This document shows, one piece after another, positions 1 to 63,857 of a DNA stretch of 64,000 nt. A model generated the notes under the pieces. That model made no database searches and was not told where the DNA came from. It saw only the letters and a list, made by a program, of their open reading frames with translations. Position numbers and translations under genes: made by a program. The stretch comes from a virus. The stretch lies in the IMG/VR virus record IMGVR_UViG_3300031566_000003; one strand, 5' to 3'. Numbering within the stretch: position 1 is the first letter of the stretch; every line of letters begins with the position of its first letter.

Positions 1-127
1 TAAAAGGATATTATGAGAGTAATAAAAGGATATTATGAGAGTAATAAAAGGATATTATGAGAGTAATAAAAGGATATTATGAGAGTAATAAAAGGATATT
101 ATGAGAGTAATAAAAGGATATTATGAG
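1..127. repeat. 22-bp tandem repeat TAAAAGGATATTATGAGAGTAA, 5 exact copies plus a 17-nt sixth copy that supplies the SD and ATG of the first gene
   Basis: Exact copies at 1-22, 23-44, 45-66, 67-88 and 89-110, partial copy at 111-127. Each copy contains AAGGA-N5-ATG. The array touches the window edge and may continue upstream. Confidence 0.95.
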
Positions 128-353
128 TAAAAAAGAATCATTAGCAACATTTGAAATTGAAGGGTATCATGCTGTTCTTCTTCATGTTCAAAATGTGTAT
201 GGAGTTGAAAAAGAACTAGATTATTGGTTTTGGGGATTTAAATACACTTCTCAAGTTTTTGAATATTTTTCATATCGAACACTTGAAGAAGCCCAAAAGG
301 TTCATGATGAGTTCATCGAAGCTATAAATCTATATTGGAAAGAAAAAAATTAG
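123..353 (+). CDS. hypothetical small protein (76 aa), aromatic-rich
   Basis: ORF with an AAGGA SD. It ends 10 nt before the radical SAM gene on the same strand. Confidence 0.6.
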   Translation: MSKKESLATFEIEGYHAVLLHVQNVYGVEKELDYWFWGFKYTSQVFEYFSYRTLEEAQKVHDEFIEAINLYWKEKN

Positions 354-3086: not shown

Positions 3087-3148
3087 ATCTTTTCCCTCGC
3101 GTCCCGAGAGTAAGGAGCCTTTTTGGTCAGTTAATATGGGAGTCGAGA

Positions 3149-3168
3149 AGATCAAAGATCTTTGATCT
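3149..3168. repeat. perfect 20-bp palindrome AGATCAAAGATCTTTGATCT (three GATC sites, two overlapping GATCTTTGATC iterons)
   Basis: Read directly; the sequence is its own reverse complement. Confidence 0.95.
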
Positions 3169-3223
3169 ACCTAATTCTGTATGATTCTAAAAAAGATTCA
3201 TAGTGAAGATCTAAGACTTAATC

Positions 3224-3289
3224 TCTTTTCTGCGAATGAATGATAAGAAAAGAAATATTGGTCGGTCTATACCGGAGTCGAGAGATGAT
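3224..3289. repeat. 66-nt intergenic element, copy 1
   Basis: 49/66 identical without gaps to 4232-4297. Both end in CGAGAGATGAT. Confidence 0.8.
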
Positions 3290-3297
3290 CAAAGATC
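3287..3297. repeat. iteron GATCAAAGATC
   Basis: Same 11-mer (either orientation) at 3150-3160, 3158-3168, 4529-4539 and 4928-4938. Confidence 0.9.
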
Positions 3298-3354
3298 TTA
3301 AATCCCAGAAGAGAAACTTTCTTTCTATATGGGTATATGGATATAGGGGGGGGG

Positions 3355-3397
3355 ATAAAAAGAAGCACCATGCGGTGAATCTTGCACAGTGCTTTTC
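3355..3397 (-). terminator. intrinsic terminator downstream of paralog B
   Basis: On the minus strand, AAGCACUGUGC pairs with GCAUGGUGCUU (11 bp including G-U pairs), 10-nt loop, then CTTTTTA. Confidence 0.7.
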
Positions 3398-3410
3398 TTA
3401 GGAGGAACTG

Positions 3411-3971
3411 TTACTCTTTAGGATTACCGGCCATGCCAAGCACTTTCTTACAAGTGCTTACGATCACGGGTAGGGCAGTTTCTTTAAAGGCTACAAAGCA
3501 GTAAGTCTTAAAGGGATAGACTACAACATCTTTGGCCCCTTCTAGGACTTTTTGTGCCTGGGTAGCAAACAATCCCTGAGTTGTGTTGTTGAAGGCAATG
3601 CGCATCTGCCCTGCAAAAACTCCATGATACATGACAATACCCTTAAAACTCTTGCTGTGAGCACTGGCTAAACAAAGACCGAAAGTTTGCCTGTGTGCCT
3701 GAGTATACCCATAGCGAGCGTACTTGGGCAGCGCATCTGTGTTAAGTTCTGTGAACAAGGTTTGCAATGTTGGACTCAGCATATCCAGATTCCCAACATT
3801 TACCCTATGCACCTTGTTTACATCCAGATCTACTACCTTGCCGCTCAGTGTAATAGGTGCTGTAAATGGATGCAGCTTATTACTGAAAACATGCACTTCA
3901 GCAATAGGACTAGCTACAACTTTTTCCTTTGCCGCTTTTGCCTCTATCTTCTTAGGCTTTATCTTACCCAT
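3411..3971 (-). CDS. abundant-protein candidate, paralog B (186 aa), function unknown
   Basis: Paralog of 2194-2808. Conserved leader AACCTGTA...TAACA.T...ATAAGGGG.TTTAA..ATG. Own promoter and terminator. Confidence 0.85.
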   Translation of the reverse strand: MGKIKPKKIEAKAAKEKVVASPIAEVHVFSNKLHPFTAPITLSGKVVDLDVNKVHRVNVGNLDMLSPTLQTLFTELNTDALPKYARYGYTQAHRQTFGLCLASAHSKSFKGIVMYHGVFAGQMRIAFNNTTQGLFATQAQKVLEGAKDVVVYPFKTYCFVAFKETALPVIVSTCKKVLGMAGNPKE

Positions 3972-13936: not shown

Positions 13937-14431
13937 CTATAAACTACGCCTTTTAGGATCTATAAACCAATACCTTCCTAATGCTGTCAATATTCCTTCT
14001 TCAGTAAGAGCTACAGGAGAACCTAACATATTTCTTACATCGTATAGTCCATACTGATTCAGCTTCCATCCTCTTTTCTTTGCATCTGACCGACAAAAGA
14101 TATTAAACATCTTAGAACCTGTAAAGTGCAGCATCATTGGCTCAATCTCTTCTGGCCGAGAGAACATGAAATCTATCTGCATTCCGCTTTTAGTTTGCAT
14201 GTAAATGAGCGCCGGTCCACTGGAAAGAACTTCACTGGCGACCTTAGTTACGCTATTCACAAACTCATCTATGCTACTCACAACCACCACCACATCTAAA
14301 TCATGCACCTCATCACATTTTCTGCGATAACTGCCACATACCTCCATTCTGGAATATCCTTTCAATTCAGGCAGAACTTCTTTCCAGATTGCTTCTGCCT
14401 CTGCTCGGGGCCATAGTTTTTCTTTTGGCAT
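13937..14431 (-). CDS. minimal family-X DNA polymerase (Pol beta-like palm plus thumb only, 164 aa)
   Basis: GSYRRKCDEVHDLDVVVV (GS[FY]RR...hDhD), QIDFMF (third Asp) and HFTGSKMFN...AKKRGWKLNQYGL (cf. Pol beta YFTGS..FN...A...G..lNeY). AAGGAGGAG SD before 14431. Confidence 0.75.
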   Translation of the reverse strand: MPKEKLWPRAEAEAIWKEVLPELKGYSRMEVCGSYRRKCDEVHDLDVVVVVSSIDEFVNSVTKVASEVLSSGPALIYMQTKSGMQIDFMFSRPEEIEPMMLHFTGSKMFNIFCRSDAKKRGWKLNQYGLYDVRNMLGSPVALTEEGILTALGRYWFIDPKRRSL

Positions 14432-14441
14432 CTTCTCCTCC

Positions 14442-14624
14442 TTAAGCCTTGAAATAGACAAGCGGACGACTGCTTATTACGACTCCGCTTTCATAATCGT
14501 ATAGCTCTATTTCTCCAGTCTTAAAGTTCATCCTTATTTCTGTCGTATCCAGATTATCTTGTTGACCTTTTGCCCATTCTGCAAGCTCAACTATGATAGA
14601 GGTATAAATTGTTATGTCTGGCAT
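14442..14624 (-). CDS. hypothetical protein (60 aa)
   Basis: Packed ORF downstream of the promoter at 14663-14691. Confidence 0.55.
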   Translation of the reverse strand: MPDITIYTSIIVELAEWAKGQQDNLDTTEIRMNFKTGEIELYDYESGVVISSRPLVYFKA

Positions 14625-15436: not shown

Positions 15437-15454
15437 TTTACTCCTCCCTGGCCT

Positions 15455-16740
15455 TACATATCTTTGCTCTACTTCGCTTTGCCTCCGCTCCGCTTTACTC
15501 TGAGAAACAATGCCTATGCTCTACGGAACCCGACTCTGCATCACATTGCCAAAGCTTTACGAACCCGAACTATGCCAACGCAAAGCTTTACAAGACTGGA
15601 CTATGCCGATGCCGTTCCAAGCCGTACCAAACTAAACCAAGCCGTTGCGATGTCGTACTGAGCCAAACTCTGCCCATGCTTGACTATGCTTGTCTAAACT
15701 CTGCCTCTGCAAGACTATACCTGTCCACACTTTACTCCGCCATCGCCTATACCGTTGCGATACTATACTGAGCTAAACTCTGCCATAGCTCTGCTACTCC
15801 AAACCCTGCGGGTCCAAACTCCGCCATCACCCAGCATCACCTTGTCTCACCCTTCAGTACTTCACGTCGCCTTTGCCCTGCCGAATCTTACACGACTTTG
15901 CCATAGCGCTACTGAACCTAGTTTCACAGTGCTATGCCTTTGCTGCACTTTGCTTTGTGGAACTACGCCTCCGCCATACCAAACATTTCATTACTTAGGT
16001 AGACTTTGCCACCGCCTTGCCTTTCGGTGCGCTATCTCGCAACGCCTTCGCGTTACAGTGTCTAACCAGACTTTACCCGACTATGCCGATGCTATACACC
16101 GTAAAACCGGACTCTGCCGGTGCTTAACGACTCCGCACCTAACAACGCGCCACCGAAGCTGTACTACACCACTCCATTCCATGCCTCTGCTGATCTATAC
16201 CACGCTTTTCTATACCCATGCTTCTCGCCGCCATACTCTGCCTTTGCCCTATTGAACCTTACCCGACTTTGCCAACGCATTGCATGTCTATACTGAGCGC
16301 GACGACACCATCGCATCGCACCATTTCGCGTAACATGACTTAGCCAACGCATTGCTGAAATATACTAATCCTAACGTCGCCAACGCTTTGCCCAATTCCA
16401 CCTCACTTCGCCACCGCCATTCAGTGCACCTCCTCGCAATGCCTTTGCACCTCATAACATAACTTATCGCCACCGTTGCGATTCTATGCCTTTCTTTACT
16501 CTACTGCGCCCTTGCAATTCACTGTAGGACTTTACCTCGCCTTGCCTCCGCTCTGCTCTACCGCACGACTCACCGCCAACGCAATACTAGTCTATGCAAG
16601 ACTATGCCGGTGCGTGATCAAGCGTCACCCCGCTGTGCCTTTGCCTCGCTCCGCTGTGCCTATGCAAAGAACTGCCCTGCTTGACTTTGCCTATGCTTGA
16701 CTTAGCAATTCTTAGCGCTACCCGACATTGCCACTGCGAT
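15455..16740. repeat. ORF-free GC-rich, C>G-skewed island of degenerate 15/16-nt units (RACTNTGCCNNNGC) with 31-nt and 111-nt higher-order copies
   Basis: No convincing ORF on either strand. Hand counts for the rows starting at 15661, 16081 and 16381 give C=19/21/27 and G=9/12/7 per 60 nt. TGCC occurs roughly three dozen times. The 111-nt duplication is 15641 versus 15752. Confidence 0.85.
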
Positions 16741-17428
16741 TTTTCGGGATACCTGACATTACCTTTGCCTTTACTTTCCTCTTCTTCACGACCGTTGGGG
16801 TCTGCTCCTTAGGACTAAGAATTCTAAAAGCACCAAATCCGCCAGAACCTCGCCATTCCCCAACACCTACCAATTCTCCATATTCCATGCACATATTAAT
16901 CACTTCCATCGTGATCCGGCCACCAGCCAGGAGCGCAACCGTAAAGGAGAATCTTGTTCCAGCATTAACATAGTCCGATCTCTTAAGAGCTATCCTCGGG
17001 CCATCCTTGGTCATAAAACGGATAGATCTTTCAAGGGTTCCATCCGGCACCATCTTACCGAAATGAATTCTCCTTGGTTCAATGAACACCAATCTATCCG
17101 TCCATTTTTTATAAGCTTTAAACGCAGTTGCAGTGAGTTTCTTTATCTCTATCAAGGTTCCAATCGCTTCTTTTATGAAGCCTTTGATCTGGTAATTGTA
17201 AAGAAACAAGCCCTCTTCATCTCTGTGAAAGGTGCTCCAGCCTTTTTCTTCCAAGTCTACCATTGTTGCAAGTTCCTCTTCTTCATTTGCCTCTTTCTCT
17301 TCGGCTGGTATTTTCAGTTCTTTCATCTTAGCCAAGATGAATTTAGCATACACATCTTTTCCCATCGGGACCGTTCCCAAAGCCATCTCTAAAAGTTCAA
17401 CATCATACCTCTTCCTTTCTAGTTCCAT
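16718..17428 (-). CDS. RAMP-like (Csm3/Cmr4/Cas7-like) protein candidate with a basic tail (236 aa from the ATG at 17428)
   Basis: The CDS itself is secure (AAGGAGGAG SD). The family call is motif-level only: YQIKGFIKEA (cf. SS[IL]KG..R), DYVNAGTRFSFTVALL (cf. E.V..G..F.F.I) and a C-terminal Gly-rich loop GVGEWRGSGGFGAF (cf. GhG-x5-GhG). It needs a profile or structure search. Confidence 0.4.
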   Translation of the reverse strand: MELERKRYDVELLEMALGTVPMGKDVYAKFILAKMKELKIPAEEKEANEEEELATMVDLEEKGWSTFHRDEEGLFLYNYQIKGFIKEAIGTLIEIKKLTATAFKAYKKWTDRLVFIEPRRIHFGKMVPDGTLERSIRFMTKDGPRIALKRSDYVNAGTRFSFTVALLAGGRITMEVINMCMEYGELVGVGEWRGSGGFGAFRILSPKEQTPTVVKKRKVKAKVMSGIPKNRSGNVG

Positions 17429-17678
17429 TTTCTCTCCTCCTTGAGTTTTGGGCAACAATCGTTGCCAGTTTACTTTCCTTCTCCTCTTTTCTTTCATTTA
17501 TAAGCTTCATAATCCCCAAAACAACTTCTTCCTGTTGGTCCATAGAGAGAGCTTTAAATTCTCTAATCTTTTGCATAACCCTATACAGCCGATCTGTTAA
17601 GGATTGTTTTTCAATTTTTCCTGGAATTCCCGCCAGAAACCTTTTAAATTCAGCCCTGTCATTTTCCTTTTCATTCAT
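17403..17678 (-). CDS. hypothetical protein, paralog of 17692-17877
   Basis: Shared GIPG, R.Y, EF..LSMD.Q.E.VL and LI.E blocks. Confidence 0.65.
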   Translation of the reverse strand: MNEKENDRAEFKRFLAGIPGKIEKQSLTDRLYRVMQKIREFKALSMDQQEEVVLGIMKLINERKEEKESKLATIVAQNSRRRENGTRKEEV

Positions 17679-17691
17679 TTTTTCCTTCCTC

Positions 17692-17877
17692 CTACTCCTT
17701 TATAAGCTCAACTACTTTAAGAACAATTTCTCCCTGGCGATCCATTGAAAGAGAATTAAACTCAGGAATTCCTCGCAAGCATTTATACACTCTTTCCTTG
17801 ATAGGATACATTTTCAATCCTCCTGGAATTCCCATTACAATTTTCTGCCAATCAATTCTTTCTAAATCTCTACCCAT
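17692..17877 (-). CDS. hypothetical protein, paralog of 17403-17678
   Basis: See 17403-17678. Confidence 0.6.
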   Translation of the reverse strand: MGRDLERIDWQKIVMGIPGGLKMYPIKERVYKCLRGIPEFNSLSMDRQGEIVLKVVELIKE

Positions 17878-19411: not shown

Positions 19412-19837
19412 TCATTTTTTTCTAAGAGTTGCACGAACCTCCATTAGAATTTTGCCTAAGTTATTTTCTCCTCTTCCTTTAAAGATTCCCCAAAAGGTAT
19501 CTTTATAATTATTTCCTTCTATTAACTCTTTCTCTCCCGTTGAAAGAAGAAGCTGTCCCAATTTCGTATTGCGTTGAAATTTCTGTGACACGAGAGATGT
19601 CATAACATCAATCCTCCGATTTAGCCAGCCTGGTCTTTGAGTGACTCTCTTACCAGCTCTCTTAGCTCTCCCAGGAGTAGGACAAGCTAAAATCTCCATT
19701 CTCTCTTCTAGGTCTAGAGTCTTAGCTGCCTGAAACGCATGCTCCAGTGTAGGATATTTTATTCCGTCAAGAATAATAGGGGTAGGATAGAAATTTGAAA
19801 GAAAGAAAAATCTTCCTCGAAAGTATTTAACAGTCAT
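19412..19837 (-). CDS. NADAR (YbiA/DUF1768) family protein
   Basis: FFFLSNFYP..I.LDGIKYPTLEHAFQAAK and WG...G.N.LG..LM..R blocks typical of the family. Confidence 0.75.
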   Translation of the reverse strand: MTVKYFRGRFFFLSNFYPTPIILDGIKYPTLEHAFQAAKTLDLEERMEILACPTPGRAKRAGKRVTQRPGWLNRRIDVMTSLVSQKFQRNTKLGQLLLSTGEKELIEGNNYKDTFWGIFKGRGENNLGKILMEVRATLRKK

Positions 19838-47691: not shown

Positions 47692-48825
47692 TTATTTCGC
47701 TTTTTTCTTAGCCGAATGCGTTTCAAGTTTCTTTTTTAAAGAAGAACTAACTGCTTCTTCTTCTGCATCAAGATCTTCATCTTCGCTGAGCTCTTTATCT
47801 ATTTCGTTGAAGAACTCTTCGTCTTCGTCTCCTTCCTCTTTTTCCTCTTCGCTTTCTCCTTCTTTTTCTCCTGCGCTTTCTTCTTCTTCACCATCTTCTT
47901 CTCCTCCTTCCTCTTCTAGATCGTCAGTTTTTTCTTCCTCATTAAGATCTTCATCCTCATCAAGATCTTCATCAGGTTCAAGCTCAACTCCCTTCATTAC
48001 CGCCAAAATTTCTTCGCTCGTTAATTTGGGATAAATAATACTCCAATCAAGAGCGTTTTCGCTCATATATTTTCTAACAACCTTGGGGAGAATAAAAGTC
48101 GTTAACGAAAAGCCTACATCAGAATAGGTAGTTTTTATCTTTTCTCCAGATCTAGAAAATTCAAAGTTATGACCTTCCGTAATACTGAAAGGATTATGCC
48201 CAATCTCCTTATGTATTTTATTAGCCATTGAAATCAGAGGATCTCTTACGGTCGGGCCAACAGTAAGATAGCCAAGTCCTGATTGACAAACTTTCCCCCA
48301 AGATGTCTTAGCTACACATTTTTCACAAACATCATGGCCCTCATCCTCTTCGCGAAAGATATAATTTCCAAAACACTCTCTTGGCTTCGGAAATTTCTTT
48401 TCATCATCTTCAAAAAACTTGTGCAAGGGAGTCAAGTTAATTCCCTCTAGGAGACAACGCTGTTTTCGGTACCTCAACTTGAGTCTTGCCTTAGCCTTTG
48501 CCCCCCCACGTTTTCTATCCTCCTCTAGAGAAAGGCACTGCGGACATAGATCAAAAGGCTCAAAGCCTTTAAAATTCTCTTCAACATGATCTCTAATACA
48601 CCTTATTTGTGCCTTTCGGTCTGGACCACAATTGTAATGAATCCCCATCTCCTCCCAAGGAAACTCACTTTCTGTCGCAGTCTCCTTAAATCTAAAATAA
48701 TTTTTCCCATCCACGACAACAAGTCTTCTGGCAAAACGACTTGAACTCTTCTTCTTTTGTCGCTTCCTTTGAGCCGCGATCTCCTTAGTCTTTTCCCTAA
48801 CTTTTTCTCCTGAAAACTTACCCAT
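47692..48825 (-). CDS. hypothetical protein with Cys clusters and a roughly 90-aa acidic C-terminal tail (SSB-like architecture, speculative)
   Basis: Long ORF. CPQC and CEKC pairs. The D/E-rich tail resembles the tails of phage ssDNA-binding proteins, but I recognise no diagnostic motif. Confidence 0.7.
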   Translation of the reverse strand: MGKFSGEKVREKTKEIAAQRKRQKKKSSSRFARRLVVVDGKNYFRFKETATESEFPWEEMGIHYNCGPDRKAQIRCIRDHVEENFKGFEPFDLCPQCLSLEEDRKRGGAKAKARLKLRYRKQRCLLEGINLTPLHKFFEDDEKKFPKPRECFGNYIFREEDEGHDVCEKCVAKTSWGKVCQSGLGYLTVGPTVRDPLISMANKIHKEIGHNPFSITEGHNFEFSRSGEKIKTTYSDVGFSLTTFILPKVVRKYMSENALDWSIIYPKLTSEEILAVMKGVELEPDEDLDEDEDLNEEEKTDDLEEEGGEEDGEEEESAGEKEGESEEEKEEGDEDEEFFNEIDKELSEDEDLDAEEEAVSSSLKKKLETHSAKKKAK

Positions 48826-62879: not shown

Positions 62880-63857
62880 CTACTTGGTAAGTTTCTTCTT
62901 GACTAACACCTTACCAGCGGTTCCAGGTTTGGATGCAACCGTCTTCTTTGCTGCCACTGGAGGCGGAGGTGGAGCTTTTTTCTTGGTAATCACTTTGCCG
63001 CCAGCTCCAGCCGGTGCAGGTTTACTTACCACCGGTCCCTTTTTTCCTGTTTCAGGTTTCGTCTCTTCTTTTTTCTTAGCAGTACTCATTGCGTTGGCTT
63101 TAAACCATGTCGCATATTCGGCTACGATAGCCAGAGCTTCTTCTATAGTGTCCTTGGTAACAATGACCCTTACCGCTCGTCTGGGCTTCTCCCAAAAAGT
63201 ACACATTTTCTGTAAAGACTTTTTGGAAGGTGCGAAGACGGCATCTCCCTTTACGGACTGATTAAGCCAGAGGTTTGTTGTTTCGGCAGTTGATAATTGA
63301 GGAACAATACTGACGAAATTGGCACCATCTTTCGACTCCAGAAGAACAGCGGTGATTGAAGACTTATGGACAACTTTTCCAAACTTTTCAAGACCTCTAA
63401 CGAGAGGCTTGAAAGCCAAAGGAACAACGGTTTGCTTTTCCCCGATTATCAAACGGCTAACCTTTGCTCCTCCTCCTGCCCTCTTTGATTTCTGCGGAGC
63501 TATCTTTTCTCCAGGAAAACGAGCTTCTTCTCCGGGAAGTTCTTCTTCCCCTTCTTCTACACCTTCTTCCTCTGCGCCTTCCTCTTCTCCGGCTTCTTCT
63601 TCGCCTTCCTCTTCTTCACCTTCTTCCTCGGTACCTTCTTCCTCGGTACCTTCTTCTTCCGTACCTTCTTCTTCCGTAGTTTCTTCTTCTGTACCTTCCT
63701 CTTCCGCGCCCTCTTCTCCTTCTTCGACGCTTTCTTCAAAATCCTCTGAATCTTCCAACTCGTCAAGACCTTCTTCTAACTCAAGATCTTCATCAAGTTC
63801 AAAATCTTCTTCTTCATCTTTCTTCTTAACCATACCTTTCCTCCTGATTGAATTCAA
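62880..63857 (-). CDS. hypothetical protein with an acidic (EEGTE)n N-terminus and a Lys/Pro/Ala H1-like C-terminal tail
   Basis: 325 aa. The tail is KKKAPPPPPVAAKKTVASKPGTAGKVLVKKK. The Ser-rich antisense ORFs are repeat artefacts. Confidence 0.7.
   Translation of the reverse strand: MNSIRRKGMVKKKDEEEDFELDEDLELEEGLDELEDSEDFEESVEEGEEGAEEEGTEEETTEEEGTEEEGTEEEGTEEEGEEEEGEEEAGEEEGAEEEGVEEGEEELPGEEARFPGEKIAPQKSKRAGGGAKVSRLIIGEKQTVVPLAFKPLVRGLEKFGKVVHKSSITAVLLESKDGANFVSIVPQLSTAETTNLWLNQSVKGDAVFAPSKKSLQKMCTFWEKPRRAVRVIVTKDTIEEALAIVAEYATWFKANAMSTAKKKEETKPETGKKGPVVSKPAPAGAGGKVITKKKAPPPPPVAAKKTVASKPGTAGKVLVKKKLTK
63630..63704. repeat. 15-bp tandem repeat (GGTACCTTCTTCCTC-like) x5 encoding EEGTE repeats
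   Basis: Units start at 63630, 63645, 63660, 63675 and 63690. Confidence 0.85.

Follow-up and report, generated by a model that had tools for sequence, protein, structure and literature searches.

VIPR (Viral Interference Programmable Repeat) systems, described in two 2026 preprints (bioRxiv 10.64898/2026.04.26.720920 and 10.64898/2026.04.26.720927), are mostly encoded by phages and combine a minimal RAMP protein, Vipr, with RNAs (vrRNAs) made of tandem pentanucleotide repeats, GGY/NN (= YNNGG). Each repeat is bound by one Vipr protomer, with the GGY sequestered and the NN exposed; the NN dinucleotides pair with double-stranded DNA (dsDNA), every third target base being skipped, and transcription is thereby silenced. 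The natural targets are satellites and prophages, and the preprints present VIPR as an RNA-guided recognition of DNA that is older than CRISPR and uses a non-contiguous code. Here, we analysed a 64,000-nucleotide (nt) stretch of viral DNA (IMG/VR record IMGVR_UViG_3300031566_000003; hereafter the window), in which a gene for a 236-amino-acid (aa) RAMP-like protein is followed, on its own strand, by a long tract of pentamers. We propose that this is very probably a VIPR locus, composed of vipr and an unusually long staggered vrRNA array lying directly downstream, in a large phage.

The same preprints distinguish seven VIPR types (I-VII), mention variant repeats (NNNGG, YNNNG and NNNNG) and recognise the repeats as at least four tandem pentanucleotides in the intergenic DNA beside vipr. 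A vap accessory gene next to vipr is typical, not universal. A figure legend names a "staggered arrays" variant, in which successive vrRNAs share 1 nt. Type II is exemplified by Escherichia phage SUSP1 and by a prophage of Pseudomonas fulva (bioRxiv 10.64898/2026.04.26.720920 and 10.64898/2026.04.26.720927). In SUSP1, the Vipr-vrRNA filament has six protomers per turn, and Vipr also pairs with RNA targets in vitro (bioRxiv 10.64898/2026.04.26.720927).

The protein and its relationship to Vipr

The longest open reading frame (ORF) at the site occupies 16718-17497 on the minus strand (259 codons counted from its first ATG). These coordinates, given in the initial annotation, hold for the ORF and not for the 236-aa protein, which starts at the ATG at 17428 (minus strand, 17428→16718), with AAGGAGGAG upstream of that ATG. 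The identical protein is the gene call on 15 public contigs, the largest of which measures 136.9 kb. The three motif blocks that had been noticed were all found again, YQIKGFIKEA at residues 79-88, SIRFMTKDGPRIALKRSDYVNAGTRFSFTVALL at residues 135-167 and ELVGVGEWRGSGGFGAFRI at residues 185-203, as was the entry of the 3' end of the gene into the repeats (GACATTGCCACTGC at 16724-16737). The pentamer register starts near 16797 and the last ~24 codons of vipr, which encode a low-confidence and poorly conserved tail, overlap it.

Single-protein searches of Pfam, PHROGs, NCBIfam, PADLOC and the PDB sequences gave no significant match, and the RAMP, Csm3 and Cmr4 models of Pfam and NCBIfam did not match the 236-aa protein even at E<=10. 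A word-indexed search returned three relatives only. From these and the protein itself, four sequences in all, a profile was built; its search of 1.84 billion cluster representatives yielded 2241 clusters with E<=1e-3, 501 of them with E<=1e-30, and most were of ~200 aa. This is a large protein family that lies outside the coverage of the curated libraries. An alignment of 109 homologs of the 236-aa protein was used for AlphaFold, for the profile search of the PDB and for hhalign; G83, R134, S151 and G199 are invariant in it, while Y79, K86, R137, G184, G188, R193 and F201 are conserved in at least 90% of the homologs. None of the 109 relatives matches a RAMP model of Pfam at E<=0.01, and weak Cas6 matches occur in two or three members.

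The AlphaFold model based on the 109-sequence alignment reached a predicted local distance difference test score (pLDDT) of 89.5; an earlier run on four sequences only (pLDDT 56) was too poor for use. The chain runs in the order strand 1, helices (24-54), strands, helix 1 (78-94), strands, a hairpin (130-154), a strand, helix 2 (174-183), the G-loop and a final strand. The YQIKGFIKEA block starts the RRM helix 1, which is the primary RNA-binding surface in RAMPs. The middle block corresponds to the second thumb strand (143-154) and the next core strand, and the C-terminal block to the RAMP G-loop, between helix 2 and the last strand. In a Foldseek search of the PDB, all of the top matches were Cas7-type RAMPs (type VII Cas7, Csm3, Cmr1/Cmr4 and Cas7-11), with E values of 5e-7 to 1e-4, a probability of 1.00 and template modelling (TM) scores of 0.45-0.57; the best viral match, a "Cas system-associated RAMP superfamily protein", had an E value of 2e-16 and 32% identity. 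The stand-alone RAMP assignment made initially is thus borne out by a confident model that matches Cas7, Csm3 and Cmr structures. Judging from this model, the protein is a single-RRM RAMP with a thumb, a G-loop and a helical insertion, and without a second RRM. The helices at residues 24-54 would match, by their position, the alpha-helical bundle of Vipr, which has been described together with its role for SUSP1 Vipr (bioRxiv 10.64898/2026.04.26.720927).

The Cas7 backbone subunits of class 1 CRISPR (type VII, 8yhd, 8yhe and 9j9e; type III-A Csm3, 6ifn and 9g9f; Cmr4/Cmr1) have an RRM core, a G-rich loop and a thumb hairpin in common with our protein. They are its best structural matches, yet the identity over the structural alignments is just 10-15%. 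Cas7 subunits polymerise along a guide RNA and flip its bases at a fixed period. This period is 6 nt in Cas7 bound to CRISPR RNA (crRNA), whereas that of the RNA considered here is 5 nt; in the former the guide information stands in the spacer, in the latter it is interleaved with the repeats. Furthermore, cas10, cas5 and cas6 were not found among the neighbouring ORFs, nor was a CRISPR array in the window. The 5-nt period, the lack of a cas operon and the lack of any match to the Pfam and NCBIfam RAMP models place the protein outside the Csm3/Cmr4 families. As a RAMP fold with a G-loop and a thumb is common to Vipr and Cas7, the fold does not discriminate between these two families.

Profile comparisons point to Vipr. 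Searched against the PDB sequences, the family profile matched the G-loops of a 200-aa type VII Cas7 (E 7e-5) and of Csm4 (E 2e-4), and then the "SUSP1 Vipr protein" 36pp_D (E 0.053), all three matches running through the G-loop. When the 109-sequence alignment was compared, using hhalign, with a 40-sequence alignment of the SUSP1 clade, the probability was 96.2% and the E value 2.1e-9 over 181 columns, which span nearly the full length of both proteins. The YQIKGFIKEA segment aligns with helix 1 of the SUSP1 clade, and the G-loop with SUSP1 Vipr CGVGDWRPRFGRF, placing E191-W192-R193 opposite D177-W178-R179. The residues of SUSP1 Vipr that meet the anchor bases are D177, W178 and R179, and also H17 and R138; W178 and R179 contact the repeat bases G2 and Y3, while D177 and H17 are the two readers of G1 (bioRxiv 10.64898/2026.04.26.720927). 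The W-R pair that grips the repeat is therefore kept as W192 and R193. The thumb arginine has no reliable placement in the alignment of the family with SUSP1. On the strength of these alignments, we consider the protein to be homologous to the experimentally characterised SUSP1 Vipr.

The pentamer-repeat array and its counterparts in relatives

Parsing the minus strand by dynamic programming yielded 259 pentamers, which cover 96% of 15447-16797 with the consensus Y-N-N-N-G (position 1 is Y in 88% of the pentamers and position 5 is G in 92%). The score of this parse was 483 bits, as compared to 96±17 in shuffles and 53 in a coding control. The identity at lag 5 was 0.381 versus 0.267±0.013 in dinucleotide shuffles (z 8.7), and that at lag 31 was 0.451 (z 15.5, dinucleotide shuffles). 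The array escaped a plain Fourier scan at period 5, since its register moves by 1 nt in every unit, and the lag-5 identity statistic was used in place of that scan. As a positive control, GGYNN repeats and, after them, a tail can be read in the intergenic DNA downstream of the SUSP1 gene.

After every 6, 7 or 8 pentamers, an additional G displaces the register and so divides the array into ~37 units, mostly of 31 nt (16 units) or 36 nt (11 units), with three units of 41 nt. In the unit logo, the two junction positions are G in 37/37 and 35/37 of the units, and are followed by C or T. Read in the GGYNN frame, every unit starts with a full GGY, the first G of which is the last base of the preceding unit. 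As far as the figure legend of the preprint describes it, the staggered vrRNA array fits these GG-Y junctions, 31/36-nt units and 1-nt shifts. The array lies directly downstream of vipr on the same strand and extends to the ribosome-binding site of the ORF that follows. No other lag-5-periodic tract occurs in the 64-kb window. Rfam (gathering threshold) and tRNA scans of the window were empty, and thus the array holds no annotated ribozyme or known RNA. A terminator-like hairpin at 15383-15360 falls inside the next called ORF, and we do not claim it as the terminator of the array.

The association of the gene with the repeats is strict. A lag-5-periodic tract, richer in G than in C on the strand of the gene, lies against the vipr homolog in all of the 44 metagenomic and IMG/VR loci. 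The single match in the genome collection, a contig of an Anaerolineales metagenome-assembled genome, carries one likewise, so that the tract is present in 45/45 related loci; the proposed tie between the protein and adjacent non-CRISPR repeats, for which the co-occurrence in homologs had been put forward as a check, holds accordingly. In the 44 loci, the tracts measure 230-1020 nt and are usually located downstream of the gene, sometimes upstream and sometimes on both sides; with ~1350 nt, that of the window exceeds all others in the 46 loci measured, the window included. In three distant homolog contigs, a gene-free repeat tract also stands immediately downstream of the gene (3/3). The arrays of relatives that we parsed have the same Y-NNN-G consensus, in units of 5-7 pentamers with one extra G between them.

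Variation at the interior (N) positions was measured on gut-phage loci of the same clade, and not on the array of the window, which is identical on all 15 contigs carrying it. Between these gut-phage strains, the 3' end of vipr is variable at 6/121 columns and the array at 21/57. The variable columns are distributed over the pentamer as follows: 2/11 at position 1, 5/11 at position 2, 8/11 at position 3, 4/11 at position 4 and 2/11 at position 5. Whole array units are gained or lost as well. Such a pattern, as read from these alignments, marks a set of guides that undergoes rapid re-programming.

The gut-phage contigs L030-L044 (positions ~3600-3900) have nearly identical vipr genes, with arrays that differ by unit insertions and deletions plus point changes, and the clustering of neighbouring genes revealed no Cas1-like gene near vipr in these loci. 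Like CRISPR arrays, the arrays studied here thus consist of many short guide units tied to a locus, and gain or lose units between strains beside a conserved effector gene. Unlike them, they have no alternation of repeats and spacers, conserved and variable bases alternating every few nucleotides, and the Cas1/Cas2 adaptation genes were not seen nearby.

Two other relatives deserve mention. P0003, a 39%-identical relative encoded by contig L001 (also found on L002), has arrays on both sides of its gene, at 1765-2316 and 3110-3450. Its pentamers read A-NNN-G, with A at position 1 in ~80% of them, and its units are separated by an extra A, not G. This purine at position 1 is to be set against the SUSP1 pocket, which is said to exclude purines; P0003 has a W at the position of Q80 of the window protein, which is aligned with M72 of SUSP1. 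The L001 phage co-occurs with the window phage in ERZ27256810 and in JGI 3300031673. The A-NNN-G repeats hint that the anchor bases themselves can be re-specified. On the 150-kb viral contig IMGVR_UViG_3300016457_000282, there are two vipr homologs (L014 at 58-65 kb and L015 at 86-92 kb). They are oppositely oriented and their array positions are identical, which could reflect an inverted duplication or an assembly artefact.

Similarly to the described VIPR systems, the locus combines a phage-encoded single-RRM RAMP of the ~200-aa class, with a G-loop that keeps the W-R pair, a thumb and a putative helical bundle, with tandem pentamers that adjoin the gene on its own strand; the anchor bases are conserved and, in relatives, the interior bases are hypervariable. 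In addition, the neighbourhood yielded no cas genes, and the window contains no CRISPR array. Both the YNNNG-type repeats and the staggered arrays with a 1-nt overlap are among the variants that the preprint names, the latter in its figure legend. The locus differs from the type II systems of SUSP1 and P. fulva in that a repeat conserves just a single G together with the Y, and GG is complete once per unit, at the junction; its units are of 31-41 nt (6-8 repeats), whereas type II vrRNAs are ~100 nt long (9-16 repeats); and ~37 units follow each other in one 1.35-kb tract, versus four vrRNAs in SUSP1. Among the three options left by the initial annotation, the repeat-RNA system is the one that these data support. 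It cannot be called previously undescribed, as it matches VIPR, published in April 2026 (bioRxiv 10.64898/2026.04.26.720920 and 10.64898/2026.04.26.720927).

Proposed mode of action, target searches and rival explanations

By analogy with the work on SUSP1 and P. fulva, from which filament assembly, DNA targeting and silencing are extended to this locus, we propose that it probably silences rival mobile elements through RNA-guided DNA binding. The array would be transcribed together with vipr or just after it, and Vipr protomers would polymerise along the array RNA, one per 5-nt repeat, to form a helical filament. The G-loop (W192 and R193) and the thumb would grip the conserved G and Y of each repeat, thereby leaving the variable bases exposed for a gapped pairing with the dsDNA of a competing phage or another mobile element, the transcription of which would be silenced. 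The GG-Y junctions, with their 1-nt shifts, would mark off short guides, each consisting of 6-8 repeats (31-41 nt).

Several points weigh against this proposal. Concerning the protein, the direct similarity to SUSP1 Vipr is weak: with the single SUSP1 sequence, hhalign aligned the G-loop only (39 columns, 84% probability, E 7.9e-6). H17 falls in an alignment gap and has no counterpart, while D177 is replaced by E191 here and by Q in most relatives, and hence the details of the recognition must differ from those of SUSP1. As to the RNA, the first G of GGY is not conserved inside the units (position 4 is A in 42%, G in 24%, T in 20% and C in 14% of the pentamers), and the array has neither the conserved 3' tail nor the pseudoknot of SUSP1. 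The support from small-RNA sequencing extends, besides type II, to the ribozyme-interspersed and single-vrRNA architectures only, and not to the staggered type (bioRxiv 10.64898/2026.04.26.720920 and 10.64898/2026.04.26.720927). No vap accessory gene was recognised by neighbour clustering across 85 loci and PDB searches, and tblastn found no homolog of the SUSP1 vap1 in the window.

The searches for targets count on the same side. The units were compared with the rest of the window under seven reading/skip rules (2-nt or 3-nt reading, with 0-3 skipped bases), with no excess of matches over shuffled-unit controls, and the units of the co-occurring relative L001 showed no match enrichment in the window. 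Exact NN-x scans of IMG/VR with three units of eight or nine repeats gave 14, 9 and 53 matches, with no contig in common, and the skipped base of these matches agrees with position 4 of the repeat at chance level only. In addition, a 6-repeat unit specifies just 12 bases under the published NN rule, which makes for a low specificity. These searches were low in power because only exact patterns could be scanned.

A tentative extension of the VIPR proposal, which we regard as possible and not as the probable case, is that the staggered Y-NNN-G arrays use a second recognition code within VIPR, and not simply that of SUSP1. It is suggested by the following observations: each repeat is anchored by one G and one Y; the base equivalent to the SUSP1 G1 varies between strains; H17, which reads G1 in SUSP1, has no counterpart in the family; and the units comprise just 6-8 repeats, six repeats corresponding to the six protomers of one turn of the SUSP1 filament. 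In this clade, three bases of each repeat may be read, or the skip may differ from the published one. Its GG-Y register shifts may delimit very short guides in place of a structured tail, or the clade may assemble one long segmented filament.

Could a VIPR-type ribonucleoprotein have another job, such as the regulation of phage or host genes, the targeting of RNA, or the formation of one long multi-turn filament on the whole 1.35-kb transcript in place of ~37 separate guides? This would suit the failure to find a rival-element target, the little information per unit under the NN rule, the identity of the array on all 15 contigs with the gene, and the absence of tails or ribozymes marking processing sites (Rfam is empty at the gathering threshold); SUSP1 Vipr does pair with RNA targets in vitro. 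We nevertheless find it unlikely: there is no match enrichment inside the 64-kb window under any of the rules tested, and the characterised VIPR clades target satellites and prophages. Furthermore, the arrays of relatives turn over fast, through their N positions and the gain or loss of units, between constant flanks, as befits an arms-race guide set and not a fixed regulatory RNA.

Two further readings depart from VIPR altogether. In the first, an orphan Cas7/Csm3-like protein would interfere with the type III CRISPR complexes of the host, in the decoy or hijacker role that had been raised initially, and the repeats would be unrelated or would mimic crRNA. This reading has in its favour the structural neighbours (Csm3, Cmr and type VII Cas7) and the anti-CRISPR factors known in phages, and nothing in the analysis supports it beyond these two points. 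It is very unlikely, given that the homology to Vipr extends over nearly the whole length, that the Pfam and NCBIfam RAMP, Csm3 and Cmr4 models do not match (only weak Cas6 matches occur in 2-3 of the 109 relatives), that the linked RNA has a 5-nt period with neither the CRISPR repeat-spacer layout nor the 6-nt register, and that gene and array are linked in 45/45 loci. The tract might instead act as DNA (origin iterons, a site for partition or packaging, or an array bound by proteins), the neighbouring gene encoding its DNA-binding protein: three helical turns of B-DNA come close to the length of the 31-nt unit, and iterons are often flanked by the gene of their initiator. Here the odds are slighter still. 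The protein has the RNA-binding RAMP fold; the excess of G over C tracks the strand of the gene in related loci, whether the tracts adjoin the gene or overlap its end, and therefore points to a transcript; and the interior of the 5-nt sub-repeat is hypervariable, whereas iterons conserve their sequence. We rejected both readings, the DNA element on fold, strand asymmetry and hypervariable interior, and the decoy on Vipr homology, 5-nt period and linkage.

Genome context and neighbouring genes

The window belongs to the genome of a large uncultivated phage, on a contig that measures at least 137 kb. Encoded in it are a DNA polymerase, a thymidylate synthase, an SbcCD-like nuclease, a UvsX-like recombinase and CobT/CobS-like proteins, and the genes around the vipr locus are phage replication genes. 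As noted initially for canonical arrays, nothing CRISPR-like was found in the 64 kb. No Cas match was obtained among the neighbouring ORFs with Pfam, PHROGs and PADLOC, a search that covered these ORFs and not every protein of the window, and neighbour clustering revealed no conserved cas neighbour in the related loci. The features of the locus are collected in the table below.

Table. Features of the vipr locus, in window coordinates
Feature	Position	Strand	Basis
vipr gene, 236-aa minimal single-RRM RAMP (putative Vipr family)	16718..17428	-	ORF, ribosome-binding site, fold, hhalign
Two helices inserted after strand 1, residues 24-54	17267..17359	-	Model DSSP helices 24-38 and 42-54
YQIKGFIKEA motif and RRM helix 1, residues 79-94	17147..17194	-	Model helix 78-94; conserved Y79, G83, K86
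Long beta-hairpin, RAMP "thumb", residues 130-154	16967..17041	-	Strands 130-140 and 143-154; conserved R134, R137, S151
Glycine-rich loop GELVGVGEWRGSGGFGAF, residues 184-201	16826..16879	-	Between helix 174-183 and strand 201-203
Putative vrRNA array, 259 Y-N-N-N-G pentamers, ~37 units	15447..16797	-	Parse, shuffle controls
91-aa ORF, candidate accessory gene	17403..17678	-	Directly upstream; 26-nt overlap with vipr start
61-aa ORF, candidate accessory gene	17692..17877	-	Paralog of 91-aa ORF

Upstream of vipr, the 91-aa ORF and the 61-aa ORF are paralogous to each other (36% identity, E 9e-16) and have a common IPG...EF.(A/S)LSMD.Q.E.VL motif. Neither has a match in Pfam, PHROGs or PADLOC, nor has the 91-aa ORF one in the PDB, and none of the ORFs flanking vipr in the window recurs next to vipr in the related loci; these two are candidate accessory genes only. 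Neighbour clustering also revealed an XRE-like helix-turn-helix ORF upstream of vipr in 42 mostly near-duplicate gut-phage loci, which is neither clade-wide nor present in the window.

Elsewhere in the window, a 141-aa NADAR-domain protein (PF08719) is encoded on the minus strand at 19412-19837; it matches the PADLOC model PDC-M42C (E 1.7e-11), and its function may lie in counter-defence or in the processing of ADP-ribose. The gene of a 174-aa PolX-like nucleotidyltransferase, with the palm and thumb of DNA polymerase beta, lies on the minus strand at 13937-14461, ~1 kb downstream of the array. Other repeats are also present: TAAAAGGATATTATGAGAGTAA, a 22-nt sequence repeated perfectly in tandem (~6 copies) at the very start of the window (1-149); a separate 15-nt tandem repeat at 2198-2254; and TC-rich direct repeats at 47801-47938 and 63526-63738, with a spacing of mostly 15 nt (some 12 or 24), inside long minus-strand ORFs; the protein segments encoded by these TC-rich repeats are probably acidic and of low complexity.

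The description of VIPR dates only from 2026, and a reading of the sequence alone was able to recover such a system. Of all the architectures, the staggered Y-NNN-G array has been studied least, and this locus offers a clean example of it from nature. Its ~37 putative natural guides provide material for establishing what sets the boundaries of units that have neither a tail nor a ribozyme, how many bases are read per repeat, and which targets such phages have.

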